Below, in pieces: positions 1,138-20,252 of a stretch of 64,000 nucleotides of DNA. This DNA is from Clostridiaceae bacterium (GTDB lineage: Bacteria; Bacillota; Clostridia; DUPQ01). Location: positions 13,454-77,453 of the forward strand of contig DUPQ01000070.1 in the NCBI GenBank assembly GCA_012838235.1, given 5' to 3'. The notes under the pieces were generated by a model. It worked only from the letters and a program-made list of their open reading frames with translations. It had not been told where the DNA came from and did not search any database. The position numbers and the translations under genes were made by a program. The number at the start of each line of letters is the position of its first letter. Position 1 is the first letter of the stretch.

Positions 1138-1166
1138 AAAAAGCATAGCGGCCGCTATGCTTTTTT
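1138..1166. terminator. Bidirectional rho-independent terminator (perfect 20-bp palindrome)
   Basis: AAAA-AGCATAGCGGCCGCTATGCT-TTTTT. The stem is a perfect palindrome (1142-1161) with an A-run on the left and a T-run on the right. It lies about 95 nt downstream of the stop of the minus-strand gene 1260-2474. Confidence 0.7.
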
Positions 1167-1259
1167 ACTACTTGCCCGAGTATGAAAAGTTTTGTCGGGA
1201 TATATGAAATTGGTATAGTATTACAGTTTTACTGATACTATCGTTATAGGTTTATTCGC

Positions 1260-2474
1260 TTATCTTACCGGTGCTTTGGAATAAACAGTTAAATAGATAA
1301 TGTCTTTTGTTCTGAAACTTGTTTTCTCAATCGGTACACAGCTGTTTTTAACCCGACCCGGATCATCATACAATATTTCATATTGTCCTTTTGAATTAAT
1401 TCGGTATCCTATTGCTACCATTGCGTGCGTTCGTGTTCCATTCTTAAACTGAACAAAAACACCGCCATGATCTCTGTCTTTTTCATTCAAATATTGGATG
1501 ATTCTTAGGATTTTGTCATCATCGGACTTTCCTTCTACTTTTTCCGAGTTGTTTTTCTTAACTACTACTTTAAATCCCAACTGCTTTGAGTACTTATTAT
1601 TATAGTAATCAAAAACACGTCCTCTGTATAGATATGTGGTATTTCCATTTGCTTTATAGGTTTCATTCGGATTAGTCTCAAAACCTAAGTTGGACAGAAT
1701 CATACAACTACTTGTTATGTAGCATCCGGTACGTTTTAATTGGGGATAATTGATTTGGCTGAAATATGTGTGATTGGGTAGGATATATGCTTTTTGAACT
1801 TTTATCACACGTGTTGCCTTGTAGCCTTCCGCACAAGCCTCCACAACAATGGAGTCTCCCATTTTTGCAGAGGGTTTTACTATAATCACTCCTGTGCTTG
1901 TGTCTATAGTGACATTATTACCGTTACTTTTTGCAATTCTCCATTTGACAGGTGCTTTGTAAGGCGAGTTGGATTTAACAACTGCGGTTAATGTAGTTTT
2001 TTGACCTACAATAATTGTGCTTGGTCCTTTTATTTCAATACTTTTGATTGAAATGGGAGCGACCGTAAACTTAACGGTGTTTCCTTTCTGTCTGCGAGTA
2101 CCGTCGGAATTATGTGCTGTTACACTGATTGAATAGTTGCATCCGGGAGTCAAATCCGTAATCTCATATGTGCATTTCGGTGCATATATTTTTTTATTCA
2201 TATTAACACATATTTTTTTTGTAAGATTTAACAGTTCAATTGTGTAGTAAGCAGCTTTCCTGTCTGCTTGCCATTTTACCACTACTTTATCCGAAGGCTG
2301 ATATCTTTGCTTATCGGTAGAACATTTTACTGCAGGGGATATTTGTGCCGTTACTTTGGAATAGACCTTATTAGAGTTCCAACGGGGCATAATTGCTGCA
2401 TCTACATTCAGGTAGGATAAGCATAATACAAGAACTATCAGTGTGCAGATTGTTTGTTTAATAATCGTTTTCAT
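1260..2474 (-). CDS. Secreted multidomain protein: signal peptide, FN3-like, Big_2-like Ig domain, C-terminal papain/C39-like cysteine peptidase
   Basis: ORF track, 404 aa. Signal peptide MKTIIKQTICTLIVLVLCLSYLNVDAA. FN3-like KVVVKWQADRKAAYYTIELL...YSISVTAHNSDG. Big_2-like IKSIEIKGPSTIIVGQKTTLTAVV...VTIDTSTGVIIVKP. C-terminal peptidase-like region with candidate Cys (RTGCYITSSCMIL) and His (THAMVAIGY). AGGAGG lies 7 nt upstream of the ATG. Confidence 0.75.
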   Translation of the reverse strand: MKTIIKQTICTLIVLVLCLSYLNVDAAIMPRWNSNKVYSKVTAQISPAVKCSTDKQRYQPSDKVVVKWQADRKAAYYTIELLNLTKKICVNMNKKIYAPKCTYEITDLTPGCNYSISVTAHNSDGTRRQKGNTVKFTVAPISIKSIEIKGPSTIIVGQKTTLTAVVKSNSPYKAPVKWRIAKSNGNNVTIDTSTGVIIVKPSAKMGDSIVVEACAEGYKATRVIKVQKAYILPNHTYFSQINYPQLKRTGCYITSSCMILSNLGFETNPNETYKANGNTTYLYRGRVFDYYNNKYSKQLGFKVVVKKNNSEKVEGKSDDDKILRIIQYLNEKDRDHGGVFVQFKNGTRTHAMVAIGYRINSKGQYEILYDDPGRVKNSCVPIEKTSFRTKDIIYLTVYSKAPVR

Positions 2475-2568
2475 TTTCTTTCCTCCTTGTAATTTTAAAA
2501 ATATTTTGTCTTGAAGAACTGTTGCTCCGTATCTTCACATTTAGGATAGCATAAATAGTTTGTCAGCT

Positions 2569-2590
2569 TCCTAACAAAATCCTAACAAAA
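2569..2590 (-). promoter_or_regulatory. Tandem 11-bp direct repeat (TTTTGTTAGGA x2 read on the minus strand), candidate wHTH operator upstream of the peptidase gene
   Basis: The plus strand reads TCCTAACAAAATCCTAACAAAA. Its reverse complement is identical over 22 bp to 6512-6533. It lies 95 bp upstream of the ATG at 2474 and is co-oriented with that gene. Confidence 0.65.
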
Positions 2591-2682
2591 TCAACTCATC
2601 AATTATTGGTCAGATCAAAGAAACGACATCTAAAAGAGAGTTTGATTATATGGATGTGAAATAGCGTTTTTTATTATAAAAT

Positions 2683-3687
2683 CTACGAAAATCGGTTAAC
2701 AAAGTCATATATTGCATCAATAGTAGCCTTAATTTCCTGTAAATAATTAACCGGTTGGTTCAGTAACTTCGGGGTACTTGCAGAATCCTGATTTGGAATA
2801 TATCCGACTGTGTCAAAATTGACTGTGTGTTTTATTGCAAATGACAAAGCTCGAACTTGCTGATATGGACAATAAATCTGTGATGTGCAATTAATGATAT
2901 TTGAATGCGGTAGGACATTTAATCGTTTGAAAAAAAAGTCAAAGCAATCTACACTGTTGGCTCTTCTTATATCCGGTTCCGAAGAAGGAGCGGAAATTGC
3001 ATAAATATCATTGTTTCCATATTTTTCTGAGTACTTTCTTATTGTCCAATTTAAGTTATAGTTATCTTTCCTTTCCGTTTCTTCCGTATATGAACGAATG
3101 TCAAATGTAGTTGATAAACCCGATGCTATTGCTTCAAATTCAAAAACGGCATCTTTGGCAGGTGTGTTGCTATAAAAAGTAATCTCCTGTTCCGATAAAG
3201 GTCTCATTGTGGATAATGCAATAACTTTTGATTCAAAGTTATGAGTGTCTATAAGGGTTTTTGCTAATTCGCATCTTTTAAAGTTGGATATTAGAGCTCC
3301 ACCGAGAGGAAGAATGTAGTCGGGAGAATTTAGTACTGTGTCAGTAATTCCGATAAGTCCTAATTTTACCGATGCTTCAAGTACTAATTTACTGTATTTT
3401 TCCACTATCTCGTCATTCTTCAACAACCACCTTGCGGCTTCACCCTCATTGGTCATCGCTTCGGATTGTTTTTTGCGAAAATCCCATACAGCTACAAAAC
3501 TTTTCAGCCATTTTAAGTAATCATAATACGGTAAAGAAAGCGGCGGATTCTCGTTGTTATTATAAATCTTAATCAACTCAACTAACTCAGGTGTCATTAA
3601 CCAGTTATAAAATTCGTGGTGAATAATAGTTTTTATTCGTTCAGTTTCAGATATATCCGAAGGTGGGCAAAGGATACGATTATTCAT
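2683..3687 (-). CDS. Hypothetical protein, weakly DUF218/YdcF-like; translationally coupled to the STAND regulator
   Basis: ORF track, 334 aa. The start overlaps the stop of the upstream STAND gene by 8 nt. Only weak motif resemblance to DUF218 (YILPLGGA, IRRANSVDCFDFF, INCTSQIYCPYQQVRAL). The family assignment is tentative. Confidence 0.55.
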   Translation of the reverse strand: MNNRILCPPSDISETERIKTIIHHEFYNWLMTPELVELIKIYNNNENPPLSLPYYDYLKWLKSFVAVWDFRKKQSEAMTNEGEAARWLLKNDEIVEKYSKLVLEASVKLGLIGITDTVLNSPDYILPLGGALISNFKRCELAKTLIDTHNFESKVIALSTMRPLSEQEITFYSNTPAKDAVFEFEAIASGLSTTFDIRSYTEETERKDNYNLNWTIRKYSEKYGNNDIYAISAPSSEPDIRRANSVDCFDFFFKRLNVLPHSNIINCTSQIYCPYQQVRALSFAIKHTVNFDTVGYIPNQDSASTPKLLNQPVNYLQEIKATIDAIYDFVNRFS

Positions 3688-6289
3688 TACTACTTGTTTC
3701 CCTTATTTTAATCATACTCATTTCAGTCACTTTATCAATCATATCATAACAAATGGAAATAAACGACATATCAATACCGGGAATGGATGCTGCAACATCA
3801 ATAGTTTCAGTAATATTGGTCAATATACTCTTATCTACAATATTTCTGTTTTCTAAAATGGAAAGTAAATCTCTTGTTTTTCCTATACTGTCTTCAACTT
3901 CTTTTGTAAAAACTCCTACATCATGCATGTAAATAATACCTGCTTTAATTTTATCGGAAAAAAACGCAAGAGAATCCTTTATGCTTTCAAAAGGAGGAGT
4001 GACATCCTTTTTTTGCTCGCAAAGGTCAAAGTATAAATTTGTTAACATAATACCTGCACCTATAAGTCTGTTATTGGATATTATTGTTTCAATATGTTGA
4101 GCGGTATTTACTTTTTCAAAGATTGATGCGGATATCAGCTGGTTTTCATATGACAGCTTAAGATAGTTGTATTTTTCCTCATCCATACAGGACCTGGATA
4201 TATGAAAATAGTCGGATCCGATGTTTCTATAGGCAGTTGCCAGCAGATTCAAATTTACACTGTTAGGTTCAGATTGTACCAATGCTTCCCTGTATACTTT
4301 GGTTTTTTTATGATAGTCTAAAGCTTTAATATAATCCCTGCTTGCATAATGGTATGCTCCTAAATTGCCATTTATCACTGTAAGTAATCTATCACATTTA
4401 TTACTTATACTCTCCGGCTGGTTTAATTTGTTTTTTATACTTTCTGTTATTTGTTCCGCACAGCTTATTGCTTTGTATGCAATGGAAAGTCTGTCTTTTG
4501 CACTTGTATACTGTAGGACCGCATAACCGGCTTGATTCAAGCAACTTGCCTTTTCCAACTTATCATCTTCACTTAGAGCATCCATATCAAGCGAATCAAG
4601 CAACTCGATAGCATGTTTTCCGTATTTATACCCTAGCTGATTATTTGTAATAATACGATACACATTGGCTATACATGCTGTCAGTTTTGCATAAGATAAT
4701 GGTATTTGTCCGATTTTTTTTAATCCCGAATACAATGAGGTGGCAAGGGTTAAATTATTCGTTAAATCGGAGTCATAGGTGGCATTATCAATAATGTCGG
4801 TAATGTAAGAGACATATTTTTCTATATAGTTGAAGTCAAATCTATCTATTTTGGTTAATATTATCTCTCTGATAAACGGATGAATGGATATAGTTCCGTA
4901 ATGATTAAATGCATAATAACCGTTAAGCAGTTTATCAAATGCCGCTTTTAGTTGCTCTCTGTTTTCCATATCAAAAGAATTATCAAAGAAAGTATCATAG
5001 TTAAATCCGCTTATCGGTAATAAGGCTAAATTATACAATAGCTGCAGATCAATATCCGTATCGGTGATTCCGGAAATTTTGAATAAGCTGTAATAAAGGT
5101 TAATAATATTATCTTTTTTGTGCTCACCATCTTTAAATACGGAAACTGTGTCGTCGAGACTTTTTGTATTATCTGATGCAAGGGCTACAATGATATCATA
5201 CGGATCTTTTATCTGAGATAACTTTGCAACAAGAGTAACTAAATATGTGTTTCTCATCAATCGGTTATCTATTAAGTCGGTGATTGATTCAATAAAATCA
5301 TGGTACTCTCTATCGTGCTTTTGCATAAGATACTCTGCAATTTTTTTTGCAATGATATCCTGTGCTATATCGGAATCCTTTTCTTTTATATCAAACATGA
5401 TTTTAAAGAATAACTGTACTAGAATATCCATCTCAAGCGGCTTTATTTCCGTTTGCTCTATTGCATAACAATTCGACAAATTAGTTTTAGAAGTCATTAA
5501 AATGTGACATCCTGTATTGATTAAATCCATATAACACTCGGATTTGTCGGACAACTCGGATAAATCCTGATTATTTGAATAATCAATGTTGTCTATAATT
5601 AACAGGGAAGGTTTTTCTAATCCTTTAAGCAAGGATATGATAACCTTATAACGGTTATCTCTTTTGTTCAGTGCATTACACGGTAGAGAAATTATTGTAT
5701 CCTTTAAACCGCTATCTGAATAAGTTGTGAATATTATGTTTTTATAACCGTCTGTTATACATGAGTTTGCATATTCTTTTGCCAATTCCGTTTTTCCCAT
5801 ACCTCTCTCGCCGGATATGGCATGGACAGGACAACGTACAAAAGCTTCTTTATGCAACTTCTGTATCATGTTTTTTCTGTTTTCATAGAAAGGGCAGTTA
5901 TAGAAAGGAGTTATAGTATTATCGTTTTTATGACTGTATGAAGGCTTAAGCGAAGGAAGAGGAAAAGAATCGGTGAGTCGGTATCCTTTGTCATCTGTTT
6001 CAATACATCTTGAAAGGATACTATTGTTCCTAAGTTGAGAAATCAATCTTTGTATTTGTACTAAATTGTTATCACATCTACGAGGATCATATTCATATCC
6101 GAATAATTTCATATGTATATCATTTATACTTACAGTATGATTTAGATTTTGAACAAGAAGGGACAATGTATCCATATGTCTACGACTGAACTTTTTTTGT
6201 TCTCCGTTCTCGACAACACATTTGCCGTCAAAATCAATATAACAATTCTCATTTATATCATGTTTTCCTCTAGATTCTTTATTGCTCAT
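3680..6289 (-). CDS. STAND NTPase regulator: N-terminal OmpR/PhoB-type winged helix, NB-ARC-like P-loop, C-terminal TPR-like repeats (SARP/AfsR-like architecture)
   Basis: ORF track, 871 aa from TTG 6295. ATG at 6289 has GGAGGTG 8 nt upstream. wHTH: FSRRHMDTLSLLVQNLNHTVSINDIHMKLFGYEYDPRRCDNNLVQIQRLISQLRNN...DDKGYRLT. Walker A GERGMGKTELAKEYA. Walker B LLIIDNID. Long helical-repeat C-terminus (e.g. GAYHYASRDYIKALDYHKK). Confidence 0.85.
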   Translation of the reverse strand: MSNKESRGKHDINENCYIDFDGKCVVENGEQKKFSRRHMDTLSLLVQNLNHTVSINDIHMKLFGYEYDPRRCDNNLVQIQRLISQLRNNSILSRCIETDDKGYRLTDSFPLPSLKPSYSHKNDNTITPFYNCPFYENRKNMIQKLHKEAFVRCPVHAISGERGMGKTELAKEYANSCITDGYKNIIFTTYSDSGLKDTIISLPCNALNKRDNRYKVIISLLKGLEKPSLLIIDNIDYSNNQDLSELSDKSECYMDLINTGCHILMTSKTNLSNCYAIEQTEIKPLEMDILVQLFFKIMFDIKEKDSDIAQDIIAKKIAEYLMQKHDREYHDFIESITDLIDNRLMRNTYLVTLVAKLSQIKDPYDIIVALASDNTKSLDDTVSVFKDGEHKKDNIINLYYSLFKISGITDTDIDLQLLYNLALLPISGFNYDTFFDNSFDMENREQLKAAFDKLLNGYYAFNHYGTISIHPFIREIILTKIDRFDFNYIEKYVSYITDIIDNATYDSDLTNNLTLATSLYSGLKKIGQIPLSYAKLTACIANVYRIITNNQLGYKYGKHAIELLDSLDMDALSEDDKLEKASCLNQAGYAVLQYTSAKDRLSIAYKAISCAEQITESIKNKLNQPESISNKCDRLLTVINGNLGAYHYASRDYIKALDYHKKTKVYREALVQSEPNSVNLNLLATAYRNIGSDYFHISRSCMDEEKYNYLKLSYENQLISASIFEKVNTAQHIETIISNNRLIGAGIMLTNLYFDLCEQKKDVTPPFESIKDSLAFFSDKIKAGIIYMHDVGVFTKEVEDSIGKTRDLLSILENRNIVDKSILTNITETIDVAASIPGIDMSFISICYDMIDKVTEMSMIKIRETSSNE

Positions 6290-6511
6290 CTTCAAATCAC
6301 CTCCACTACATAAAAAAGCAAAATATACACATTTTCGAAAGCAGTTGCTAAATTCATAAGTAGCTAATTATTCTGGGTGGGTATATACATTGGAACAGCA
6401 TATCAATGTTCACGAAATACAACTGTGTTTAATTATACTCGATATAAGCTGAGCTAACAACAGATTTGTTGCAATGATTGAACACAGTAGCACAATATTC
6501 AGGATACCTTA

Positions 6512-6533
6512 TTTTGTTAGGATTTTGTTAGGA
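6512..6533 (+). promoter_or_regulatory. Tandem 11-bp direct repeat TTTTGTTAGGA x2, candidate wHTH operator upstream of the 13-gene operon
   Basis: 22 bp identical to the reverse complement of 2569-2590. Lies 93 bp upstream of the ClpP ATG (6626) in the divergent intergenic region shared with the STAND regulator. Confidence 0.65.
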
Positions 6534-6625
6534 ACCTTGTGTAAAAAATGTGGCAAAATTCAATTAGACAATCACTTGGTAAATTATGGGTGGATAACAT
6601 CATATTTTACGGAAAGGAATAAAAA

Positions 6626-7219
6626 ATGAATGAAAGATTTATACCCACAATAATAACGAATATTAACGGTGTTGAACAGATAACCGATTCAGTCAATATT
6701 GACTTTATGAGAAGAAGAATATATTTGGTCGGTGAAATAGACAGTACATCCTCTACAGCGATGCTGTCAATGCTCGGATATTTATCAAACAAGTCAAGTG
6801 ATGATATAGAATTATTCATAAACAGCCCCGGAGGAGCTATACAGGACGGTCTTGCCATATATGACACAATCAAATACGGGGTTAATTGTGATGTTGTAAC
6901 AGTTGCGTACGGAAGAGCCGCAAGTATGGGAGCTTTTCTTTTGGCTTGCGGGAAATCAGGGAAGCGCTATGCTTTACCCAATGCCGAAATAATGATTCAT
7001 CAACCTTTGGGTAGGGTTCAAGGGCAGGCAACGGATATAATATTGGCTGCTGATAATATTAAAAAGACCAAAGAACATATCGCATCTATTTTTGCCGGAA
7101 AGTGTAATAAGCCGGTAGATATACTGCTCAAAGATATGGAGAGAGATTATGTTATGACAAGTAAGGAAGCATTGTCATACGGATTGATTGACAATATAGG
7201 GTTTCCTAAATCGGTATAG
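6626..7219 (+). CDS. clpP: ClpP-family serine protease (paralogue, first gene of the operon)
   Basis: 197 aa. IYLVGEID...FINSPGGAIQDGLAIYDTI...GRAASMGAFLLACG (Ser), EIMIHQPLG (His), ERDYVMTSKEALSYGLID (Asp). GGAAAGGA RBS present. Confidence 0.9.
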   Translation: MNERFIPTIITNINGVEQITDSVNIDFMRRRIYLVGEIDSTSSTAMLSMLGYLSNKSSDDIELFINSPGGAIQDGLAIYDTIKYGVNCDVVTVAYGRAASMGAFLLACGKSGKRYALPNAEIMIHQPLGRVQGQATDIILAADNIKKTKEHIASIFAGKCNKPVDILLKDMERDYVMTSKEALSYGLIDNIGFPKSV

Positions 7220-7235
7220 AGAGGGGGTGAAAAAA

Positions 7236-7985
7236 ATGAGGGAGACATTGCTCTACGGCCATGAAGAAATAAAGAAAGCAATAAATGAAATATGCGTGAA
7301 CAGCAAAGCATATAGTATCGGAAGAGTCCGACCGAGCAACTATATTATCCATCTTGATAGGGGTAACGGTCGTACAACTCTTGCAAGATATATTACCGAG
7401 AAGTTTTATAAACACAGTATTATAAAGTTTAGTAGCAAAGACTTGTTTTTGGAAATTGATTTTGACGGTACTTTGAAACAGCTTCAAGAGTCTTTTGGTT
7501 ATATCAGTTTAGCAGCTTGTTATGCAAATAGTTATGAAGGGGTTCTGTTTTTTGGTATTGATTCATTAGGAGATTATATACATGAAACTCAAGTGGAATT
7601 ATTTTTGGATAATATTGCAAAAGTCAGTGAAACAGCAACATTGATTTTTTATGTTCCCGAGAATCCGTCTAGAAGCATCAGTCAACTGATAGATAAGATT
7701 CGTGATGTATTGAAAGACACTGTTCTAATAGAAAAAAGCGTATACACTGCAACTGAATTGACCTTAATAGTTGAGTCGATGCTAGAAAAGAGGGGAATTG
7801 AAATTGATCAAAAAGCTCAATTTCATGAACAATTAGTTAATCTGATTGCACATATGGAACTTAAAACAATTGATGATGTAAAAGAATTATCAAAAAGAAT
7901 AATACTCTTAACGGATTATAGCTCATTAATATCGAGAGTTGGCAGTTCTCAGTTGAGAAAAATGAGACATGATGTTTTGTCTTGA
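7236..7985 (+). CDS. Degenerate SpoVK/CbxX/EccA-like AAA+ domain protein (probable pseudo-ATPase)
   Basis: The track ORF starts at GTG 7227. ATG 7236 follows GAGGGGG by 8 nt. HLDRGNGRTTLARYI resembles the Walker A GNPGTGKTTVAR but has Lys replaced by Arg. GVLFFGIDSL sits where Walker B GVLFIDEA would be, so the DE is lost. Confidence 0.65.
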   Translation: MRETLLYGHEEIKKAINEICVNSKAYSIGRVRPSNYIIHLDRGNGRTTLARYITEKFYKHSIIKFSSKDLFLEIDFDGTLKQLQESFGYISLAACYANSYEGVLFFGIDSLGDYIHETQVELFLDNIAKVSETATLIFYVPENPSRSISQLIDKIRDVLKDTVLIEKSVYTATELTLIVESMLEKRGIEIDQKAQFHEQLVNLIAHMELKTIDDVKELSKRIILLTDYSSLISRVGSSQLRKMRHDVLS

Positions 7986-8003
7986 TGTTTGGAGGAAAAT
8001 AAG

Positions 8004-9863
8004 ATGATGAACCGCTATTCAAATGAGTACGAGATAGAAAGGAGTACAAGCCGGTTGGATAAAGAATCCTCTACCTGTGGTCCTGTTGTATATTATAACG
8101 GTAAGCCATATGTATATGATGGAGAAAGCCATGTTCTCTATATCGGTAAAAGTGGTAAGGGTAAAAGTAGATGCGGAACAATCTCTACAGTGCTATCAGT
8201 GCAGCAAGCCGGTGAATCCTACATTGTATCCGATCCTAAAGGGGAGATATACAATGCAACTTATTGTTTTCTGAAAGATAAATATATTGTTCATGTAATT
8301 GATTTCAGAAATATTTTAGAAAGTGAAACTTGGAATCCTTTAGAACTTGCATACAAACTATATTCTACCGGTGATAAGCATAAGATGGAAATAGCCTATG
8401 AATTGATTGTAGAATTGGCATTTTTATTATTTGCGGATTCTGTAGTTGCTGATCCGTTTTGGGCTCAAAGTGCACGTAGCTTATTTATCGGTATTGTCTA
8501 TTTACTTTTCAGTTTTGCTCCTGCTGATCAAATAAATATGAAGTCGGTATATATGCTTGCTGTTTTAGGAGAACAAAGGTTAGGGTCAACAAACTATTTG
8601 CGTCATCTTATTGATTTGTTGCCTAAAGACACAACTGCATCGATGAACCTGAATTCGTATATGGCTGCGCCTAATGAAACAAGAGGAAGTATAAAATGTG
8701 TTTTCTTAGATGGTATGGCAATATTTGCAAGAAGCGAAGGTCTTATTGAAATGTTGAGTTCTGATGGCTTGAACATTGCAGAAATGAATGGTGAAAAACC
8801 GGTTGCAATATATATTATTTTGCCGGATGAATCAATAATCTATGATAGGCTTTGCGGTGTGTTGATTAGTCAGTTAATGAAACACTATATGCGTCTTGCG
8901 CAAGATGAATACAAAGGCAGATTGCCGATACGTATGCATCTGATACTGGAGGAGCTTGCAAGTGTGGGAAGTTCCATATCCGGGTTGCCGGACTTAATGG
9001 CTACATCTCGAAGCAGAAATATTAAAATATATATTGTGCTTCAGTCATTATCTCAGTTGGACGATTTATATGGAAAAAGTAATGCATCTACAATACTTGC
9101 CAATATCGGTATCATCATTGCCTTTAGTACTAACGATTGGAAGACCTTAGAGGAGTTATCACAAAAATGCGGAGATAAGGAAATAGATTTCGGTACAAGA
9201 ATAGTTACAACAAGCCTTATTAAGCCGGAGCAGCTTGCTGGTATGGATGTAAAGCAAGCATTGGTAATGATAGACGGAAGTGTCAAGTATATAACTAAAT
9301 TACCGTTCTATGATGAAATATTTGACTTTAGCGAGTGGAAAGAACCGGCGCAATTAAAACATAAAAAAGAAAATAATCCGAAATACTTTGATATTACTAA
9401 ATATGTTCAAGAGGGTGGTGAAACTGATTTAAGAGTACCGATGATGTTGCAGAATGAAGATATATTCAGAACTTTCAACAAGCCCAAAATTAATGAAGAA
9501 ATTAAACTTCAAGAGTTAATAACGAAGATTGATAAAGCAATTGAGAGATTAGAGGGAACAGAAGAAATAGAGGAAATAGAGGAATTAAAAGAAATAGAGA
9601 AATTAATGGAATTAGATATGCAGGAGATGATAGATGAAGAGGATATTCCTGATAGCTATGATATAATACTCTATCGTTGCAATAGTTGTGAAAATGTTAT
9701 TGCTTTGGTTGTTGCCAAAATACTGGATGTAAGTTACAATGAAGCAGTCAATAAATTAAAAGAAGAGCCTCAGATATTTAAATTTGAAACAAGAATTGAA
9801 GCTGAAAGAGCAAAAGCTGATATACGCAATGTGGGTGGGGATGTTTATAATCTATTCGATTAA
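8004..9863 (+). CDS. Soluble VirD4/TraG-like (type IV coupling protein family) P-loop ATPase with acidic linker and C-terminal ribosomal L7/L12-CTD-like domain
   Basis: Track start is TTG 7989. ATG 8004 follows GGAGGA. Walker A YIGKSGKGKSRCG. SDPKGEIY, DPFWAQSARSLF, LILEELASVG (Walker B region), IVLQSLSQLDDLYG. No N-terminal TM helices. Acidic EEIEEIEELKEIEKLMELDMQEMIDEEDIP linker. C-terminus YDIILYRCNSCENVIALVVAKILDVSYNEAVNKLKEEPQIFKFETRIEAERAKADIRNVGGDV. Confidence 0.8.
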   Translation: MMNRYSNEYEIERSTSRLDKESSTCGPVVYYNGKPYVYDGESHVLYIGKSGKGKSRCGTISTVLSVQQAGESYIVSDPKGEIYNATYCFLKDKYIVHVIDFRNILESETWNPLELAYKLYSTGDKHKMEIAYELIVELAFLLFADSVVADPFWAQSARSLFIGIVYLLFSFAPADQINMKSVYMLAVLGEQRLGSTNYLRHLIDLLPKDTTASMNLNSYMAAPNETRGSIKCVFLDGMAIFARSEGLIEMLSSDGLNIAEMNGEKPVAIYIILPDESIIYDRLCGVLISQLMKHYMRLAQDEYKGRLPIRMHLILEELASVGSSISGLPDLMATSRSRNIKIYIVLQSLSQLDDLYGKSNASTILANIGIIIAFSTNDWKTLEELSQKCGDKEIDFGTRIVTTSLIKPEQLAGMDVKQALVMIDGSVKYITKLPFYDEIFDFSEWKEPAQLKHKKENNPKYFDITKYVQEGGETDLRVPMMLQNEDIFRTFNKPKINEEIKLQELITKIDKAIERLEGTEEIEEIEELKEIEKLMELDMQEMIDEEDIPDSYDIILYRCNSCENVIALVVAKILDVSYNEAVNKLKEEPQIFKFETRIEAERAKADIRNVGGDVYNLFD

Positions 9864-9901
9864 TAATAATAAGGATAATTGTATAAAGGAGGGAATGGTT
9901 T

Positions 9902-11215
9902 ATGAGTGGCTTTACTATTGGAGAATATGAATTAGCTAGAAGGGAGAAAGAGTGGTTAAGACTGATAGAGGAAGAAAACCGCAAAAGATTAAAAGAGGCT
10001 ACCGACAGATACAGGTCATGTTTGGCTAATGTTAAATCGGTTAAACACAGAATATCTGCTCATATGGTGGAACAGGAGAAAACACTGGAAGCATATTCTT
10101 ATATGAAGCAACCGTTTGACGAGCTTAAAAGTATAAAAAAGAAATATTGCGAGAAAATTGAACGACTTTGTACTGGCAATATCCCTTCCGAGGTTGTTGA
10201 GATAAACGAGTTATCTGACAAGTTGGAGGAGGATATAGGGGTAATAAGTGCGGAGTTTTTCAAAAAAACGGAAAAAGTGGAAAAAGCAATCAGAGAATAT
10301 ATGAGAATACATGCGGACAATATAGCTACTAAGCAAGTATCAGTTGAATTGGACAGGTTTTCAAAGAGAATTAAAGAAGCTGTCAGAGTGGATTATGCCG
10401 ACTTTATTGAACCTTCTTCAAATAAGACGGAGGAGGATTTGGTAAGCAAGTTTGCTGCTGTATTGCAATTAGCGGAAGAGTGCTTCAATATTTCACATAT
10501 GGATTCCGTCAAATCCAATGTAATTAACATCGTAACAACTCTGAACTCCGTTTCCGATAAGACTTATGATGAAAAAAAGGTTGTGTTGGATCAAATTTAC
10601 AGTAAATTAGTTTCGATCAAGAAGGAGGCAATAGCAAAGAGTAAAAGGTTTGATGCACTGTACACTCAATACCTGGCGGAATGTATTTTAGCTGGCAGTA
10701 AGCCGATGGTTGATTACAGTTTTACATCACTCGAAGCTTTGTCTGACGAGCTTAAATCGGTTAAGAAGAGAGCGGAAGAAAAAGCGGAACACAAATATAT
10801 AACCGAACAGATAAATGATGTTATGCGTAGTATGGGCTACAAATCCATAGACAGTCAGCTTCTTGAGTTACCCAAGGTCGGAACAAGACAGTTGTTCAGA
10901 ATAAAGGAAAATGTTGCACTGAATGTATATGCTTCCGAGAACAACGAAGTGAATACACAGCTTATTATTATCGGGGACAGTAAGAATATAACCGAAGAAG
11001 ATTACGAACAGTTTGAAGAAGAACAAAGAAGCTTCTGCAAGCGCAATCCGGAGTTAGTAAGAAGATTATCGGAAAGAGGTATTTTGATTAAGAACGGGAA
11101 GATAAAAGAGCAAGACAAAAATGATTTGGTTAAAGAAAAAATAGTGACCGATGCGAAGAGTGAAAATAGAAAAAGTAGAAAGAGAAAAATGGAAATAAGG
11201 ATGGAGAGGGAATAA
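9902..11215 (+). CDS. Coiled-coil protein, unknown function
   Basis: 437 aa, AAGGAGGG RBS. Charged heptad-like sequence over most of its length, Lys/Arg-rich tail. No family recognised. Confidence 0.7.
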   Translation: MSGFTIGEYELARREKEWLRLIEEENRKRLKEATDRYRSCLANVKSVKHRISAHMVEQEKTLEAYSYMKQPFDELKSIKKKYCEKIERLCTGNIPSEVVEINELSDKLEEDIGVISAEFFKKTEKVEKAIREYMRIHADNIATKQVSVELDRFSKRIKEAVRVDYADFIEPSSNKTEEDLVSKFAAVLQLAEECFNISHMDSVKSNVINIVTTLNSVSDKTYDEKKVVLDQIYSKLVSIKKEAIAKSKRFDALYTQYLAECILAGSKPMVDYSFTSLEALSDELKSVKKRAEEKAEHKYITEQINDVMRSMGYKSIDSQLLELPKVGTRQLFRIKENVALNVYASENNEVNTQLIIIGDSKNITEEDYEQFEEEQRSFCKRNPELVRRLSERGILIKNGKIKEQDKNDLVKEKIVTDAKSENRKSRKRKMEIRMERE

Positions 11216-11797
11216 ATGAAAGCATGTGATATATGCGGTGCGTCAAATGATGATAATTCAAGGATATGTAATGTTTGTGGTGGAAGGTTTGCAGAAAAAT
11301 CTGTTTCTTATGTTTACTATGTAAGGTGTAACACATGCAATGCCGATATTTTAGTGCAGAATGAAAAACAGGATAAGGTTTTCTGCAAAACCTGTGATAA
11401 AGAACTTGTGATAGACGGAATAGTACATTCGGTATCCAGGAGAGAAACGATTGCAGAAGAAGAACTATATGTAGAACCTACATTGATTTTGGAAGAGGTA
11501 AAATCCAAGCATAAATTCATCATCCCCAAAGAAGGCGGAGTATTTGGCAGATACGGACAATTTGATCCACACTTTTTTCAAGATGAACGTTTTTCCAGGG
11601 TATCAAGGCGTCATATTGTAATAAGTTATGACAGTGACAGTAATAAATGGTCGGTAAAACCCAACAGTGAGACCAATGACACATATATAGACGGAAGGAC
11701 ATTTAAACCGTCAATGAACAGTATTGCCGTTGAAATCAGAGATGGTCAGATGATAGGGCTTGCCGACATATATTTTAAAGTTATAATAAACGGGTAG
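11216..11797 (+). CDS. Double zinc-ribbon plus FHA domain protein
   Basis: 193 aa. CDIC...CNVC and CNTC...CKTC pairs. FHA signature FGRYGQ (GR), SRRHIVI (SxxH), NDTYIDG, and a C-terminal beta-strand region. The start abuts the upstream stop. Confidence 0.85.
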   Translation: MKACDICGASNDDNSRICNVCGGRFAEKSVSYVYYVRCNTCNADILVQNEKQDKVFCKTCDKELVIDGIVHSVSRRETIAEEELYVEPTLILEEVKSKHKFIIPKEGGVFGRYGQFDPHFFQDERFSRVSRRHIVISYDSDSNKWSVKPNSETNDTYIDGRTFKPSMNSIAVEIRDGQMIGLADIYFKVIING

Positions 11798-11802
11798 TAC
11801 AG

Positions 11803-12384
11803 ATGAATGTTGACAGAATCGCTTTTCCAATCAAATCACTCGGACCGGGTAACCGGATAGCAATTTGGACTGCAGGATGTAAAAAGCATTGCTATAATTG
11901 CATAACGCCAGAATTGTGGGAGCCCGATCCGATGAAAGAAATATCCGTACAAAGCCTTGTGCATATTATCACAACTGTTGTTTCCGATAATGGTATTACT
12001 GTTGACGGTATTACCATAACGGGAGGAGACCCTTTTGAACAGCTGGAGGACCTGTTGAACTTACTTCCTTATGTAAAAAATATGGTAAAAGACATTTTGG
12101 TTTATACAGGTTATGAGTACTCGCAATTTAAGAAAACTCTTAGCGAGTGGAAAATAGAATGCATAGAAAGTAATATTTCAGTTTTAATTGATGGGCAATA
12201 TGTAGATAAATTGAACGATAACAAAAGTGCATTGATAGGCTCAACCAATCAGAATATTATATTTTTTGACGAGAAACTTAAATCTAAATATTCGGAATAT
12301 ATGGAAAAAGGCAGAAGCATAGAGAATATAATACACGGGAAAAAGGTTTTTTCTGTAGGTATACATAATAGAGAGGAGAAATAA
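11803..12384 (+). CDS. NrdG-like radical-SAM activating enzyme (4Fe-4S CX3CX2C)
   Basis: 193 aa. The N-terminus MNVDRIAFPIKSLGPGNRIAIWTAGCKKHCYNCITPELW matches the NrdG/PflA-type activase pattern (SxxDGPGxR..F..GCxxxCxxCxN). GGDPFEQ SAM-binding motif. Confidence 0.8.
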   Translation: MNVDRIAFPIKSLGPGNRIAIWTAGCKKHCYNCITPELWEPDPMKEISVQSLVHIITTVVSDNGITVDGITITGGDPFEQLEDLLNLLPYVKNMVKDILVYTGYEYSQFKKTLSEWKIECIESNISVLIDGQYVDKLNDNKSALIGSTNQNIIFFDEKLKSKYSEYMEKGRSIENIIHGKKVFSVGIHNREEK

Positions 12385-12385
12385 A

Positions 12386-14251
12386 TTGGATAATCAATCA
12401 GTAAAGCCCAAATGGCAAAAGGAGATAGAGCTTTTCAGAGGTATAAAAAGTGCATATATAATTGAAGGCAATATAAATGACAACTATCCTATCTGCGAAG
12501 AGGGAGGTAGTGTATATTTTGCTAACCTTGATAAGACAATAATAAAGTTGTTTGATAAGGATGTATATGATTTCTGTTTCTGTAATCCTGCGGTAGGGTT
12601 ATATGATCCTCTTAACAGAAGTTTACAAAAAGAAACCGTTGAAGCATTGATAGGCAAGTTTAATAATAATGAATTATGTTCCCGTTATGATGATATATTC
12701 GGTCATGTTTATATGATTAGAGAAATAGGTTTACTTGCCGATATTATTAAAAAAGCATTGGTAGGAACAACAAACAATAACGAAGGAGAAAGAAAACCCG
12801 TTGCAGTCGTAGTAAATTTCGCATCAAAGTTTTTTTCGGACGTATCCAATATAAATAATGACGAGATGAAGGCATTGTTGAACATATTATTAGCTTCATT
12901 GAATTCCAGATATTACCGGAACAATGTCAATACATTGATACTGGTTGTGGAGAAATTCAATGACCTTCCCACATGGTTCTACTACAATAATCCCAAGGTA
13001 AAGACCGTTACTATACCCAATCCCGACAGGTTGGTCAGAACTGTGTATATCGAGAAAGAGTTCACCGAGTTTAACAGTATAGAAAAGGCGAAGGATGTAA
13101 TTGATAAGCTTGTAAGCGCCACGGAAGGATTAAAACTGATTGAGCTTAGAGAATTAAGACAACTTCACATGAAGAATAATGATGACATATCCAATATTAA
13201 TGAAACGGTGTCTGCATATAAATATGGTATTAAGGATAATTTATGGCAAAGTTTCAATAAAGGAACAATAGAGAGACTGGAAAGATATCTTAAAGAAAGA
13301 ATAATCGGTCAGGACTATGCATTGAATAAAGCAATAACGATAATAAAGCGCGCGGTGATGGGAATGACAGGTTTGCAACATTCATCTGCAGATAATAAAC
13401 CTCGCGGTGTACTGTTCTTAGCCGGTCCTACCGGTACCGGAAAAACGGAGCTGGCAAAAGCTATAACTGTAATCCTTTTCGGTGATGAGAGAAACTGTAT
13501 AAGATTTGACATGGCTGAATTCAGTGAACCACATTCGGATCAGAAACTAATCGGTGCACCTCCTGGTTATGTTGGTTATGAAGCGGGAGGGCAGCTGACT
13601 AACGAAGTGAGAAAAAGACCATATGCAACGGTACTATTTGATGAAATGGATAAAGCATGTCCGACAATTATGGATAAATTCTTAGAAATACTGGAAGATG
13701 GCAGGTTGACAGACGGACAAGGCAATACGGTATATTTCTCAGGGACACTGATAATTTTTACCAGTAACTACGGATATACGGAAATGAGAATTGATGAAAA
13801 CGGTAACGAGAAAAGAGAATGGATTATTAAACCCGGCGAGTTACCCTATGAAGAGGTAAGGAAAAAAGTGGTTGATTCTATTAAAAAATCCAAAGCGATG
13901 AAACCGGAAATAATAAACAGGATAGGGGAACACAACATAATTGTATTTGATTTTATCAGCAAAGAGGCCGCAGAAAAGATAATTAAAAAACAGATAAAAC
14001 AAGTGAACGAAGACTGCAAGAAGCAAAAGGGAATCTCAATGCATGTTTTAGATGAATGCTATGAGTTATTAAATAAGAAATCTCGGTCCGATGATGTGAT
14101 GATTTATGGAGGCAGGGGTATAGGAACATTGGTAGAAAATGAATACATCAACCCTCTTTCCAATTATTTGTTTGATAATGATTTTACCCATGAAGTAAAA
14201 ATAACTGCATTTGTAAAAGGGGATAAACTGGACTTCAGAGAGGAGGTATAG
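12386..14251 (+). CDS. Clp/Hsp100-family AAA+ ATPase (ClpB/ClpV-like D2) with degenerate N-terminal D1-like half
   Basis: 621 aa, TTG start 7 nt after GAGAGGAG. D2: IIGQDYALNKAI...GVLFLAGPTGTGKTELAKA...LIGAPPGYVGYEAGGQLTNEVRKRPYATVLFDEMDKA...LEDGRLTDGQGNTVYFSGTLIIFTSN...YGGRGIGTLVE (sensor 2). The N-terminal half has IIEGNINDNY at the Walker A position and VVVNFASKF at the Walker B position. Confidence 0.85.
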   Translation: MDNQSVKPKWQKEIELFRGIKSAYIIEGNINDNYPICEEGGSVYFANLDKTIIKLFDKDVYDFCFCNPAVGLYDPLNRSLQKETVEALIGKFNNNELCSRYDDIFGHVYMIREIGLLADIIKKALVGTTNNNEGERKPVAVVVNFASKFFSDVSNINNDEMKALLNILLASLNSRYYRNNVNTLILVVEKFNDLPTWFYYNNPKVKTVTIPNPDRLVRTVYIEKEFTEFNSIEKAKDVIDKLVSATEGLKLIELRELRQLHMKNNDDISNINETVSAYKYGIKDNLWQSFNKGTIERLERYLKERIIGQDYALNKAITIIKRAVMGMTGLQHSSADNKPRGVLFLAGPTGTGKTELAKAITVILFGDERNCIRFDMAEFSEPHSDQKLIGAPPGYVGYEAGGQLTNEVRKRPYATVLFDEMDKACPTIMDKFLEILEDGRLTDGQGNTVYFSGTLIIFTSNYGYTEMRIDENGNEKREWIIKPGELPYEEVRKKVVDSIKKSKAMKPEIINRIGEHNIIVFDFISKEAAEKIIKKQIKQVNEDCKKQKGISMHVLDECYELLNKKSRSDDVMIYGGRGIGTLVENEYINPLSNYLFDNDFTHEVKITAFVKGDKLDFREEV

Positions 14252-14255
14252 TCAA

Positions 14256-14975
14256 GTGTTACATGTTGTTGCTATTACCGATAAAGGTCCGAGTAATGAG
14301 AAAAATGACGACTGTATATTAGTTAATAATACTGTTATAACCGAAGGATCGTTTTATGGAGAATACCGTTCCTACCTGCTTGCATCGGTTTTTGACGGTG
14401 TCGGAGGCGAGCATTACGGAGACGAGGCGGCTAAAATTGCAGCGACAGGTTTTTCAACACTTGATGTTAAAGACAGATTAAGTGAACATGTTATAGTTGA
14501 TAGGATAAAGGCGGTGAATAGGGATATTCTTGATGCACAGAGGACCGATGTTTATCACAGCAAAATGGCAACTACAATAGCAGGGGTTTATATAAGTAAT
14601 GACAGCTTCATAGCCTTTAATGTCGGTGACAGTCGGGTGTATCGCTTAAGAGGCGAGTATATGTTGCAGATATCGAAAGATCATAGATATTCGGAAAAAG
14701 TTCACACAATATACCGATACTTAGGACACCCTACCGATTACCTACCGTATACTGATATGTTTGATAACTTGTTTTTTGACAATGACATTCTTGTTATTTG
14801 TACTGATGGTATCAGCGACTTTGTTTACAACAGTGTAATCAAGCGGGAACTTATGAAAGTTGAAGACAATTATTCTTTGACGGAATGTGCAGAGGAAATA
14901 ATGAATACTGCAATTAAGGAAGGGTGTAACGATAATTTAAGTATCATATTAATAAGGAAGTGCGAAAATGACTGA
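14256..14975 (+). CDS. PP2C-family Ser/Thr phosphatase
   Basis: 239 aa, GTG start after GAGGAGG. VFDGVGGEHYGDEAA, NVGDSRVY, CTDGISD, NDNLSIILI. Confidence 0.85.
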   Translation: MLHVVAITDKGPSNEKNDDCILVNNTVITEGSFYGEYRSYLLASVFDGVGGEHYGDEAAKIAATGFSTLDVKDRLSEHVIVDRIKAVNRDILDAQRTDVYHSKMATTIAGVYISNDSFIAFNVGDSRVYRLRGEYMLQISKDHRYSEKVHTIYRYLGHPTDYLPYTDMFDNLFFDNDILVICTDGISDFVYNSVIKRELMKVEDNYSLTECAEEIMNTAIKEGCNDNLSIILIRKCEND

Positions 14976-17139
14976 TTTAGAAGTGTCTAACTGTACTAAA
15001 AAAACAAGTAGTTTAATAAATACATTAAGTTATAACGGGCCGTCTACTCCGTTAATGACCGATGTGGAATTCAAGGGAAGAAACGGAAACACCTATAAGG
15101 TCTTGTCAGACGGGTTTATTCATCAAGGCGGAGAATCTGTTTTATACAAATGTATTTGTAATAATGAGGTTTATGTTGCAAAAATACTAAATTTTTCTGT
15201 TAGCTTGAGAAATGATGAACTAAGAGGACCTGTTTTAGATTTTTTAATAAGACATTCCGGTAAAGACTCACACCTCTTGCAACTACTTGATTACGGGACA
15301 ATCAGATATAATGACGGCAGATATGATGCGCTGAGATATATTGAAATATATCCGTTCTGCCCTAAAGGTGATTTGGGAAGATTAGGGAAAATTGATTATG
15401 ATACTTTGTGTGAAAAAGTTATACCTGCTATCAACACCGCTCTTAATACTTTGCACAATGCAAATCTGGTTCATAGAGATGTAAAACCCAATAATGTGTA
15501 TGAACTGGACGGCGAAATATATCTGGGGGATTTCGGACTCTTGACAAGCAGCATCATAGAAGATGGACATAGTAATGCACATGCATACACATTAACACAA
15601 AGAGGAACTGAGGGTTATATGGCTCCAGAAATATATAAAGGTTCTGTTTATAATATTTCCGATTACTATTCGTTCGGCCAGACCATTTCCACTTTATATC
15701 ATGGAAAACATATGTATGAACACCTTATGAATAATACCGACTATATAGCAAACAGAGACATAAATCTTTCTCTTCATCGGTGTATGATGGAGGGAATTTT
15801 ATATTTAAGTTTGGAAACAAAGCACAAGGAACTAGATAAATTACTCAGAGGCTTGTTGAAGTGCAATCATGAGTTAAGGTTCGGTTATGAGCATGTTTGC
15901 AGATGGCTTACCGGAGACAAGACTCTGACCGTACCGGAAGACAGAAACATAGATCAACTGAATCCGCCATTTATGATTAATGATGTCAAATGCAGAAACA
16001 TAGAAAGCATGGTTGAACAGCTATTATTAAACTGGGATATGGCAAAGGAATACTTATACGAGGGGATAATGAAAGACTTCTTCAGTGCTCAGAATACAGA
16101 GTTAAGTATGAAAGCACTGGAAATATCAAGAAAACAGGGAAATGAATTAGTTAATAATACCGGATTAAGTCAATTTATTCATTATTTAACGGAAGGGGAA
16201 GGGATATATTGGAAAGGAAGAAAATATAACGACCATGCGGAAATTTTCAGCGATTATACAGACAATCATAGTATTAATCCCGATGTCATAGAGTTGCTTT
16301 CCTCCGGTTTTTTATCCTGGAGAATGGAAGAACTGAATAAGAAAGATAATAAATATCAAAACCAAATTGAGCTTCTTAAGAGTATTGAAAAAGAATGTTT
16401 TTGCTATAGTTCAATAGGTTATCATTATGCAAGACACAAACTAAGAGGGGAAGAAATAAGTTATTCAGATTGCCAAAATGTTGCTGAATTAATAGATTAT
16501 TTTATTGAATCATTCGGAAAAACATATTTTACTGGAGAAACATGGTTGAGAGATGATAGGTTTTATGGATTTTTAATGGCATTAGGTCATGTTAAAATTG
16601 CAACTTCTTTATTCGAGGAAGTGAGATGGGCGCAACCTGCGAATGCCATAAGAGCATTATTCGGTACTTTAGAAGTTTTGATAGAAAGAGGAAACAGCAC
16701 TTCACTTCAAACTAAAAAAGAACTTTTAAACATCTACTTGTTATATGGTCCGCGGTCCTATCTCTGCTGGATAAAAGAGAATCTTAGTTGTTACGATTTT
16801 ATGGGTATGAACGCTTTTATTTTAAAAGAGAAAATTGAGGACATTAATTTGAGCAATAAAAAAAGTCTTGCAGATATCGATTCAGCATTTAATGAATTGG
16901 CCAAAAATCTTAATCAATTTAAGCTATACTTCTGTGACAATCCTATTCTATGTAAATTAGGGATTAGTAATAAGGAAGGGAATGATATTATTTATTCAAA
17001 AAGCCTTGACGGTTATTTTTTATCCGACTTCTATGGGAATAAAGTACCGGTCGGATTTTATAAGTATATTGATGCATACAGGAGTAAAAAGAAAATAGTT
17101 AAGAATTTAAATAACTCCGAAGACCTGTTTTCCTTCTAA
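14968..17139 (+). CDS. Hanks-type Ser/Thr protein kinase with about 430-aa uncharacterised C-terminal region
   Basis: 723 aa, overlaps the PP2C gene by 8 nt. VYVAKIL (Lys), HRDVKPNNV, LGDFGL, GTEGYMAPE. No motif recognised after about residue 300. Confidence 0.9.
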   Translation: MTDLEVSNCTKKTSSLINTLSYNGPSTPLMTDVEFKGRNGNTYKVLSDGFIHQGGESVLYKCICNNEVYVAKILNFSVSLRNDELRGPVLDFLIRHSGKDSHLLQLLDYGTIRYNDGRYDALRYIEIYPFCPKGDLGRLGKIDYDTLCEKVIPAINTALNTLHNANLVHRDVKPNNVYELDGEIYLGDFGLLTSSIIEDGHSNAHAYTLTQRGTEGYMAPEIYKGSVYNISDYYSFGQTISTLYHGKHMYEHLMNNTDYIANRDINLSLHRCMMEGILYLSLETKHKELDKLLRGLLKCNHELRFGYEHVCRWLTGDKTLTVPEDRNIDQLNPPFMINDVKCRNIESMVEQLLLNWDMAKEYLYEGIMKDFFSAQNTELSMKALEISRKQGNELVNNTGLSQFIHYLTEGEGIYWKGRKYNDHAEIFSDYTDNHSINPDVIELLSSGFLSWRMEELNKKDNKYQNQIELLKSIEKECFCYSSIGYHYARHKLRGEEISYSDCQNVAELIDYFIESFGKTYFTGETWLRDDRFYGFLMALGHVKIATSLFEEVRWAQPANAIRALFGTLEVLIERGNSTSLQTKKELLNIYLLYGPRSYLCWIKENLSCYDFMGMNAFILKEKIEDINLSNKKSLADIDSAFNELAKNLNQFKLYFCDNPILCKLGISNKEGNDIIYSKSLDGYFLSDFYGNKVPVGFYKYIDAYRSKKKIVKNLNNSEDLFSF

Positions 17140-17169
17140 ACTTGCAATATGTGAAGGGTAAATATTGAA

Positions 17170-18141: not shown

Positions 18142-18253
18142 TATCTTTCATTGCGGATTTAAACTGTTTATAGATAACATTGTTTTATATATTGGTATTA
18201 AAGAAGGGAAGAAAGCAACAGTTTGTTAAACAGTCGTGAAGGAGGAATATAAT

Positions 18254-19135: not shown

Positions 19136-19159
19136 GAACTGATATATGGAGGTATATAG

Positions 19160-20215: not shown

Positions 20216-20252
20216 TTTAAGTGGATAAAATAAATATATAAGGAGTCTTGTT

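Follow-up and report, generated by a model that had tools for sequence, protein, structure and literature searches.

We analysed a stretch of 64,000 nt (the window) from a Clostridiaceae bacterium, positions 13,454 to 77,453 of contig DUPQ01000070.1 (assembly GCA_012838235.1). Near its left end is a gene for a signal transduction ATPase with numerous domains (STAND) that begins with a winged helix, and directly behind it, translationally coupled, is a gene for a second protein that we call the partner. The pair is divergent from a long operon led by clpP, as a note made earlier from the sequence alone had described, and a spacer of 330 nt separates the two. On the opposite flank is a gene for a secreted peptidase-like protein of 404 aa. 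The same 24-nt box, built from two perfect direct repeats, stands upstream of clpP and upstream of the 404-aa gene. The reading that we favour, with somewhat better than even confidence, is that the STAND protein is a signal-activated transcription activator which, together with an obligate sensor-side partner, drives the flanking cargo genes. The features that matter most are listed here, with positions counted in the window.

3680..6289, minus strand: STAND regulator gene; the ATG at 6289 gives 869 aa, and the longest open reading frame (ORF), which begins with a TTG, is 3680..6295 with 871 aa
5975..6265, minus strand: OmpR/PhoB/ToxR-type winged helix, residues ~9-105 (Pfam scores, family profile, AlphaFold model)
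4850..5878, minus strand: NB-ARC-type STAND ATPase module with nucleotide-binding, helical and winged-helix domains, residues ~138-480 (profile, Foldseek, motifs)
5789..5812, minus strand: Walker A, GERGMGKT, G160-T167 (family alignment)
5582..5605, minus strand: Walker B, LLIIDNID, L229-D236 (family alignment)
3686..4822, minus strand: TPR-like helical repeat region, residues ~490-868 (AlphaFold model, Foldseek)
3680..3687, minus strand: 8-nt overlap of the STAND stop and the partner start, ATGAATAA (read from the sequence)
2683..3687, minus strand: partner gene, 334 aa, probable member of the PF27209 (Rv3785_N) family (homologues with the precomputed domain, AlphaFold model)
6432..6460, minus strand: sigma-70-like promoter of the STAND-partner operon, TTGTTA, 17-nt spacer, TATAAT (consensus scan, 10/12)
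6511..6534, plus strand: box 1, ATTTTGTTAGG ATTTTGTTAGG AA, an 11-nt sequence repeated perfectly in direct orientation, with the clpP ATG 91 nt downstream
2568..2591, minus strand: box 2, an exact copy of the 24-mer between the partner stop and the 404-aa gene, 93 nt from the ATG of the latter
6626..21260, plus strand: divergent 13-gene cargo operon, candidate target of box 1 (Pfam, NCBIfam and PADLOC scans)
1260..2474, minus strand: gene for a 404-aa secreted protein with FN3 and C39-like peptidase domains, candidate target of box 2 (fn3 1.4e-7; Peptidase_C39_2 24.1 bits)

For the ATG at 6289 the spacing to an upstream GGAGG is 10 nt, for the TTG at 6295 only 4 nt, and on this ground we take the ATG as the likelier start. 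The earlier note had ended the gene at 6289 and had the STAND stop overlapping the partner start by 8 nt; both agree with what we read.

The window protein taken alone scores below threshold with every relevant Pfam model (AAA_22, NB-ARC, NACHT and Trans_reg_C). NB-ARC reaches 18.6 bits against a cut-off of 23.5, NACHT 17.6 against 26.7 and Trans_reg_C 18.6 against 26.2. Its relatives P0126-P0134 carry precomputed NACHT or NB-ARC domains, so that by its sequence it appears to be a divergent member of the NB-ARC/NACHT group. Trans_reg_C is also above threshold in relatives (33.8 bits in locus L003; PF00486 in P0123 and P0124). We searched PDB sequences with a profile of 19 family members, and residues 10-110 matched OmpR/ToxR-type DNA-binding domains (E ~5e-5), namely those of DrrD, ToxR, AdeR and ArlR at E 5e-5 to 6e-4. 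The same profile matched plant NB-ARC proteins (Roq1, ZAR1 and NRC3) over residues 141-319, again at E ~5e-5.

The AlphaFold model of the STAND protein (pLDDT 81) has a four-strand sheet, three helices and a C-terminal beta-hairpin wing at residues 9-105, followed by a P-loop domain, helices at 303-372 and a winged-helix region at 393-480. The C-terminal half is all-helical repeats, mostly at pLDDT 85-97, up to the C-terminus; this presumably is the sensor or docking arm. With this model Foldseek found the solved STAND-TPR protein 6mfv (E 1.2e-10), CED-4 and Dark, and, for the repeats, the TPRs of LGN/Pins (TM ~0.5 on the target) and RapI/RapF. In alignments of 19 and of 14 family members G160, G163, G165 and K166 of Walker A are invariant, as are D233 and N234 of Walker B in the family alignment. 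Other NB-ARC motifs are kept in the family: TSK/R after a strand, the GLPL-like ALLP, and the MHD-like LHP, in which H470 is present in at least 90% of members and P471 is invariant. With profile, model and Foldseek in agreement, we hold it nearly certain that the protein consists of a winged helix, an NB-ARC-type ATPase and TPR-like repeats. The earlier note had proposed this same layout, with intact Walker motifs and an output domain that binds DNA instead of acting as a catalytic effector, and it was right on each count as far as profile and model predict.

The layout resembles that of SARP regulators, and the earlier note had considered that the protein could be an ordinary one. We found no BTAD domain in it (Pfam, E <=0.01), and in the model only ~30 low-confidence residues link the winged helix to the ATPase, which leaves no room for a BTAD there. 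For these two reasons we do not place it in the SARP family.

We assign the partner to PF27209 because its homologues carry that assignment: we collected 139 of them, nearly all with the precomputed domain, and these are 34-100% identical to it. A profile search with the partner family gave 1117 cluster representatives. The public annotation of the partner (P0001, 304 aa, from a Clostridia bacterium metagenome-assembled genome, MAG) begins at Met31. The N-terminus, however, is kept across 50 homologues (C7, P8, R17 and W29), and since the first 30 residues with their Cys-Pro motif are conserved in the family, the 334-aa start is probably right and the annotated one 30 codons too late.

The partner is modelled with high confidence (pLDDT 93.7, pTM 0.92) as an N-terminal helical domain (~1-110) and a Rossmann-like alpha/beta core (~120-300). 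Its conserved motifs are GGA after the first strand, R162, APS, RRANS-D, TS, Y272 and Q276, and the invariant residues include G129, G130, A131, R138, R162, A233, P234, S235, R242, D247, Y272 and Q276. In the model the invariant residues sit at the C-terminal strand ends, which is the usual ligand crevice of such folds. We found no match to the partner in our local Pfam (a copy without the PF27209 model), NCBIfam, PADLOC or PDB sequences, and Foldseek against PDB and BFVD gave nothing at E <=0.001, the best match being MccB with a TM-score of 0.27. Profile and structure searches, which the earlier note had proposed for both proteins, thus placed the STAND fold but left the partner without a significant structural neighbour.

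The DUF218/YdcF-like features that the earlier note had seen in the partner did not hold up. None of 50 family members matched DUF218, with E values up to 10 allowed; hhalign of the partner with YdcF of E. coli gave a probability of 0.2; and the top 50 PDB Foldseek matches contain no YdcF-type fold. One phage DUF218 protein is among the Foldseek matches, at E 0.15. PF27209 is mentioned nowhere in the literature that we searched, and there Rv3785 itself, from M. tuberculosis, turns up only in lists of single-nucleotide polymorphisms. The function of the family is not described in that literature, and the same is true of the low-GC branch linked to STAND genes.

The 24-mer of the boxes occurs exactly twice in the window, both times on the coding strand of its target and pointing to it, and the pair is the strongest non-coding repeat of the 26-kb region. 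No shuffled sequence gave two box matches (0/100), even with 3 mismatches allowed. The two promoter regions share identity in the box only. At clpP, 8 nt lie between the end of the 3' repeat and a -10-like TAAAAAAT. A consensus scan found no good sigma-70 match downstream of the box at either target, which fits a dependence on an activator. We think it quite probable that the boxes are operators of the STAND winged helix, and that binding there activates rather than represses is our inference. That the STAND protein may drive the flanking operon had been raised in the earlier note. The idea gains support from the sequence, because the perfect box upstream of clpP recurs at almost the same distance from the gene on the opposite flank.

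Outside the window, no convincing repeated box came out of tandem-repeat scans, shared k-mers or a pattern search that covered all loci. Suggestive 11-nt periodic repeats are present in L003 and L006. In L121 there is a looser promoter-like element of ~55 nt (AAAAATGGCGGnAAnTTTTT...TGCGAyGT...AAGTGTAArGrATATAAAA) with one copy on each side of the STAND-partner pair (L121:6860-6920 and L121:11545-11600), and this element also occurs downstream of the partner in L012.

The pairing of the two genes recurs in other genomes. Of 44 informative low-GC loci, about 26 have a large co-directional STAND/TPR gene (600-1100 aa) directly upstream of the partner gene. The junction ranges from a 50-nt gap to a 46-nt overlap, with the exception of L025, where the gap is 232 nt; in L089 and L091 the overlap is 8 nt, as in the window. 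What changes from locus to locus is the N-terminal domain of the STAND protein.

Trans_reg_C: the window and L003 (above threshold in L003); L001, L006, L012 and L121 by N-terminal homology
SIR2: L022 and L030
TIR: L023 and L064
Nucleoside phosphorylase, with NB-ARC and TPR: L025
Protein kinase: L123
NACHT, KAP or unassigned: L040, L038, L014, L028, L031 and L032

The sibling SIR2 domains are ThsA/LmuA-like and the nucleoside phosphorylase (PNP) domains resemble CBASS effectors according to PADLOC, which matches the sibling proteins solely through these SIR2 or PNP domains. An iterative hidden Markov model built from the window ATPase failed to reach the TIR and SIR2 siblings, whose cores are too divergent to align.

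Fusions of the two genes encode at least 13 proteins of 1190-1540 aa, in which Walker A falls near residues 195-290 and the partner domain forms the very C-terminus. Fusions of TPR repeats to the partner are likewise present, and one fusion, P0173, has the partner domain at the N-terminus. We put the chance that the partner acts on the sensor side at about even, because it is fused to the STAND C-terminus in many relatives and is translationally coupled here; the fusions lend support to the earlier suggestion of a co-sensor. A Solobacterium MAG has a 1274-aa ORF (L064:7091-10915) in which a TIR domain is joined to a C-terminal partner domain, and a second TIR protein, of 658 aa, precedes it. 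The partner is more conserved than the STAND protein: identity to the window is 79% for the partner and 54% for the STAND protein in L089, and 45% and 27% in L001.

The cargo operon begins with ClpP, an AAA-like protein of 252 aa whose Walker A is degenerate (GNGRTT), a VirD4-like coupling ATPase (CD1115-type, with a score below the cut-off) and an uncharacterized 437-aa protein. Genes 5-7 encode a Zn-ribbon-FHA protein, an NrdG-like radical-SAM activase without an obvious glycyl-radical partner, and a ClpX/ClpB-like ATPase. The last six (genes 8-13) encode a PP2C phosphatase, a 723-aa Ser/Thr kinase, two uncharacterized proteins and two PRiA4_ORF3 proteins. PADLOC gave generic domain matches only in this operon (mad6, mad8, PDC-M37B and DolB). 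On the other flank, the 404-aa protein has a hydrophobic, signal-peptide-like N-terminus, as read from its translation.

Further left, at 1-890 on the minus strand, is a DprA-like gene that PADLOC matches as ShosA (2.2e-67); the window begins inside it. A metagenome contig, L103, is 99.97% identical to window positions 1-3244 and extends the map leftward (L103:1-7446). Beyond the ShosA-like gene it carries a phosphoribosyltransferase (ShosT/PsyrT-like), a PHP gene, two PDC-S01 candidates, which are AAA_14-DUF4143 genes, and a PRiA4_ORF3 gene. The Shosta-like pair and the PDC-S01 genes beside the STAND locus appear to form a defence island.

On the right, a GrpB-NUDIX fusion and GNAT genes (window 21425-23544, plus strand) are 94-95% identical in amino acids to those at 716-2835 of L089, a JGI metagenome contig that is the closest relative. 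L089 lacks the 404-aa gene and the whole clpP operon, and the distance from the GrpB-NUDIX/GNAT genes to the STAND gene is ~4.5 kb there and ~15 kb in the window. These genes mark one edge of a variable island. Other loci have other cargo.

L001: ClpP, VirD4-like ATPase, metallophosphatase
L091: 1037-aa protein, C11 peptidase
L121 (L121:11648-18333) and partly L003 (L003:15041-20954): small ORFs, ThiF/E1-like protein, transglutaminase-core protein, Band-7 protein, ClpP
L006: ABC transporter, Sel1 protein

ClpP is found in the cargo of three distant loci. The cargo of L121 and L003 resembles a ubiquitin-like conjugation conflict system. Because the STAND allele and the cargo vary while the flanking core genes stay 94-95% identical, the pattern looks like that of a hypervariable conflict locus and not of a fixed metabolic regulon. 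Whether the module serves in conflict or defence we judge at roughly even chances.

Among known systems AfsR is the nearest in layout, with an N-terminal OmpR-type DNA-binding domain, then an NB-ARC-type ATPase, then TPR. Its afs box is 22 bp long and consists of two 11-bp direct repeats, with one OmpR-type domain on each repeat, and 8 bp separate a SARP site from the -10 element that follows it (PMC10936776). The candidate boxes of the window have this same form of two 11-nt repeats. AfsR is linked to Ser/Thr kinases, and among the predicted products of the boxed operon in the window are a kinase, a PP2C and an FHA protein. The window protein differs from AfsR in lacking a BTAD between winged helix and ATPase, in having a translationally coupled PF27209 partner, which AfsR does not have, and in its host, a Firmicute, whereas AfsR comes from an actinomycete (Streptomyces). 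The targets differ too: AfsR acts on antibiotic biosynthesis, whereas in the window the candidates, both in a defence island, are the ClpP/coupling-ATPase operon and the gene of the secreted peptidase.

MalT and GutR share with our proposal a switch that depends on signal and ATP and activates nearby promoters. According to work cited in PMC12803255, MalT is restrained by the bound enzymes MalY, Aes and MalK, which would be a precedent for an enzyme-like partner that gates a STAND protein. The HTH of MalT is C-terminal and LuxR-type, whereas that of the window protein is N-terminal and OmpR-type, and the MalT inhibitors are encoded elsewhere, whereas the partner is in the same operon or, in relatives, fused.

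With Avs (AVAST) and bNACHT proteins the STAND protein shares the tripartite layout of output, ATPase and repeats, the setting in a defence island and, among the proteins linked to the same partner, an exchangeable N-terminal domain that includes TIR and SIR2. The window differs from them in an output that is predicted to bind DNA, with candidate specific operators, and in a conserved second gene. Kibby et al. name winged helices among 'adaptor' outputs, with a transcriptional response as a possible result, and a recent survey classes transcriptional STANDs as non-immune (PMC12803255). CapW and BrxR, which have a WYL domain, are also transcription factors beside defence genes and couple a danger signal to expression of the adjacent immune operon. 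They are small ligand-released repressors without an ATPase, whereas the window has a large ATP-driven STAND protein, probably an activator, with a separate partner.

We propose the following mechanism. The STAND protein would be held off in an ADP state, by analogy with MalT, GutR and AfsR. On a signal it would bind ATP, change conformation or oligomerise, and offer its N-terminal OmpR-type winged helices to DNA, so that each 11-bp repeat of a box would carry one of two adjacent protomers. Bound in this way, it would switch on two outward-facing promoters, that of the clpP-led 13-gene operon and that of the FN3/C39-like peptidase gene. Translational coupling would supply the partner in fixed proportion to the STAND protein, most likely as a sensor-side subunit docked on the TPR arm. 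The conserved Arg/Ser/Asn/Asp/Tyr/Gln pocket on its Rossmann-like core may bind or act on a phosphorylated small molecule, and the partner may then gate the STAND protein, either as a co-sensor or as an anti-activator in the manner of MalY and Aes. The winged-helix variant would thus have as its output the transcription of cargo genes that are swapped in and out of a defence island.

Other explanations can be given for the same genes. The STAND protein could be a MalT/GutR-like activator of a housekeeping metabolic or envelope pathway, with the partner as a pathway enzyme or product sensor and no role in conflict. The known STAND transcription factors MalT, GutR and AfsR are indeed metabolic regulators (PMC10936776; PMC12803255), the pair borders polysaccharide-synthesis genes in L089-L091 and L003, and the partner family has stand-alone members (as in L092), members beside AMP-binding or acyltransferase genes, and a large actinomycete branch, after whose Rv3785 it is named. 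We still regard this as unlikely. Siblings that share the partner have TIR, SIR2 and PNP domains of defence type, the locus sits between a Shosta-like system and the ClpP/coupling-ATPase/kinase operon, the boxed targets include no metabolic pathway, and alleles and cargo differ between near-identical genomic backgrounds. It seems similarly improbable that the partner is an effector with a toxic enzymatic activity, for example on a nucleotide or cofactor, and that the winged helix is accessory or autoregulatory only. Conservation of its pocket is strong, and the Gly-Gly-Ala, Arg-Arg-Ala-Asn-Ser and Thr-Ser motifs at strand ends give the pocket a catalytic look; the partner evolves more slowly than the STAND protein; and in P0173 it occupies the N-terminal position that is usual for effectors. 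Most fusions, however, place it after the repeats, on the sensor side, and the TIR, SIR2 and PNP siblings already have N-terminal effectors of their own. Stand-alone members in many genomes are also hard to square with a toxin.

The boxes themselves may be something other than STAND operators: inverted terminal repeats or recombination scars of a mobile STAND-partner cassette, or sites of another factor. The inverted copies bracket exactly the two-gene module (3967 bp, 2568-6534), the module is in different neighbourhoods in different genomes, and the 22-mer within the box is also found in unrelated metagenomes. The STAND promoter and leader are conserved with the closest relatives, L089 and L091, but the box-bearing part of the spacer is not: homology stops ~50 nt before box 1, and both relatives lack the box. 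In both, the family alignment shows a strongly diverged STAND N-terminal region. The boxes would therefore seem to travel with the cargo-side promoters and with this DNA-binding domain, and if they belong to those promoters they are not the ends of a cassette. Between 2568 and 6534 there is no transposase or recombinase, a tandem 11-bp repeat is a signature of OmpR/SARP-type sites (PMC10936776), and both boxes point to a start codon at a near-equal distance (91 and 93 nt). We consider it quite unlikely that the boxes are a cassette's ends or scars or another factor's sites.

Several observations weigh against the proposal that the STAND protein activates the cargo through the boxes as part of a conflict module. 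At the promoter of the 404-aa gene the geometry between box and -10 is ambiguous, and a sigma-70-like site lies upstream of box 2, so that repression or a roadblock may take place there. Self-BLAST of eight other STAND-family loci, seven with a winged helix and one kinase-headed, gave no comparable repeated box. The box sequence is not unique to this regulator, since its 22-mer recurs in 27 metagenome stretches, of which only one is from the window's own organism; this metagenome-wide scan returned mostly unrelated AT-rich sequences. On a Bacteroidetes contig the 22-mer TTTTGTTAGGATTTTGTTAGGA is present at L113:1041-1062 and 4968-4989, where it precedes two paralogous type-IX-secretion cargo genes, within a longer stretch of duplicated upstream sequence. 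The 22-mer is used there in an unrelated way, which cautions against conclusions from the motif by itself. Walker B reads DN in place of the DD usual in NB-ARC proteins, its second acidic residue being Asn. PADLOC v2 has no relevant model match for the STAND protein or the partner. No relatives of the partner were found in IMG/VR viral contigs.

The distribution of the partner also counts on this side. The earlier note had asked whether its homologues are always adjacent to STAND genes, and they are not. Pairing is incomplete in the low-GC loci, the family gene stands alone in L092 and follows AMP-binding enzymes in L048 and L051, and we recognised no partner-linked STAND gene in ~35 actinomycete loci, where high-GC ORF noise made gene calls unreliable. 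Because the partner occurs alone, beside AMP-binding enzymes and in actinomycetes without a recognised STAND gene, its ancestral role may be metabolic.

A broader reading, which we offer tentatively and think rather doubtful, is that the PF27209 partner defines previously unrecognised bacterial STAND immune modules. These would combine a Rossmann-like trigger subunit with interchangeable STAND outputs, and in the winged-helix variant they would drive swap-in effector operons. The trigger could be a sensor of a small molecule, or else a copy of some host enzyme, serving as bait for invaders that attack this enzyme. Detection would then lead to transcription of the ClpP/coupling-ATPase/kinase machine and the secreted peptidase, an inducible modular regulon in place of a self-contained suicide protein.

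The STAND switch and its layout are of a known kind; the partner family and its recurrent pairing with STAND genes are undescribed in the literature that we searched. The same appears to be true of the fusions of PF27209, of a partner shared across TIR, SIR2, PNP, kinase and winged-helix STANDs, and of twin boxes on flanking cargo. STAND-plus-partner modules with an interchangeable N-terminal output are absent from PADLOC v2 and from that literature. STANDs are usually divided into immune receptors, which directly kill the cell or arrest it, and transcription activators of metabolism, and this locus bridges the two groups because the same partner accompanies killing STANDs with TIR, SIR2 or phosphorylase domains and STANDs with an OmpR-type output. 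If our proposal is right, the locus would be a tractable case of transcriptional, inducible immunity by an NLR-like switch in bacteria. It would also give a first functional handle on PF27209, with its ~1100 sequence clusters including Rv3785 of M. tuberculosis, and new effector operons could be found from what such regulators flank.

A few minor observations remain. The STAND leader has no Rfam match and its folding stability is unremarkable (z = +1.35), and we found no near-identical DNA for the window in plasmid and phage collections. GC is ~0.34-0.37 in the first 30 kb of the window and 0.41-0.45 at ~30000-64000, a step that fits horizontal acquisition of the first ~30 kb as an island. Downstream of a 106-aa ORF, a 26-nt palindromic terminator-like element (AAAAAGAGCTTATATAAGCTCTTTTT) is present twice, at 24115-24140 and 24422-24447, with ~300 nt between the copies.

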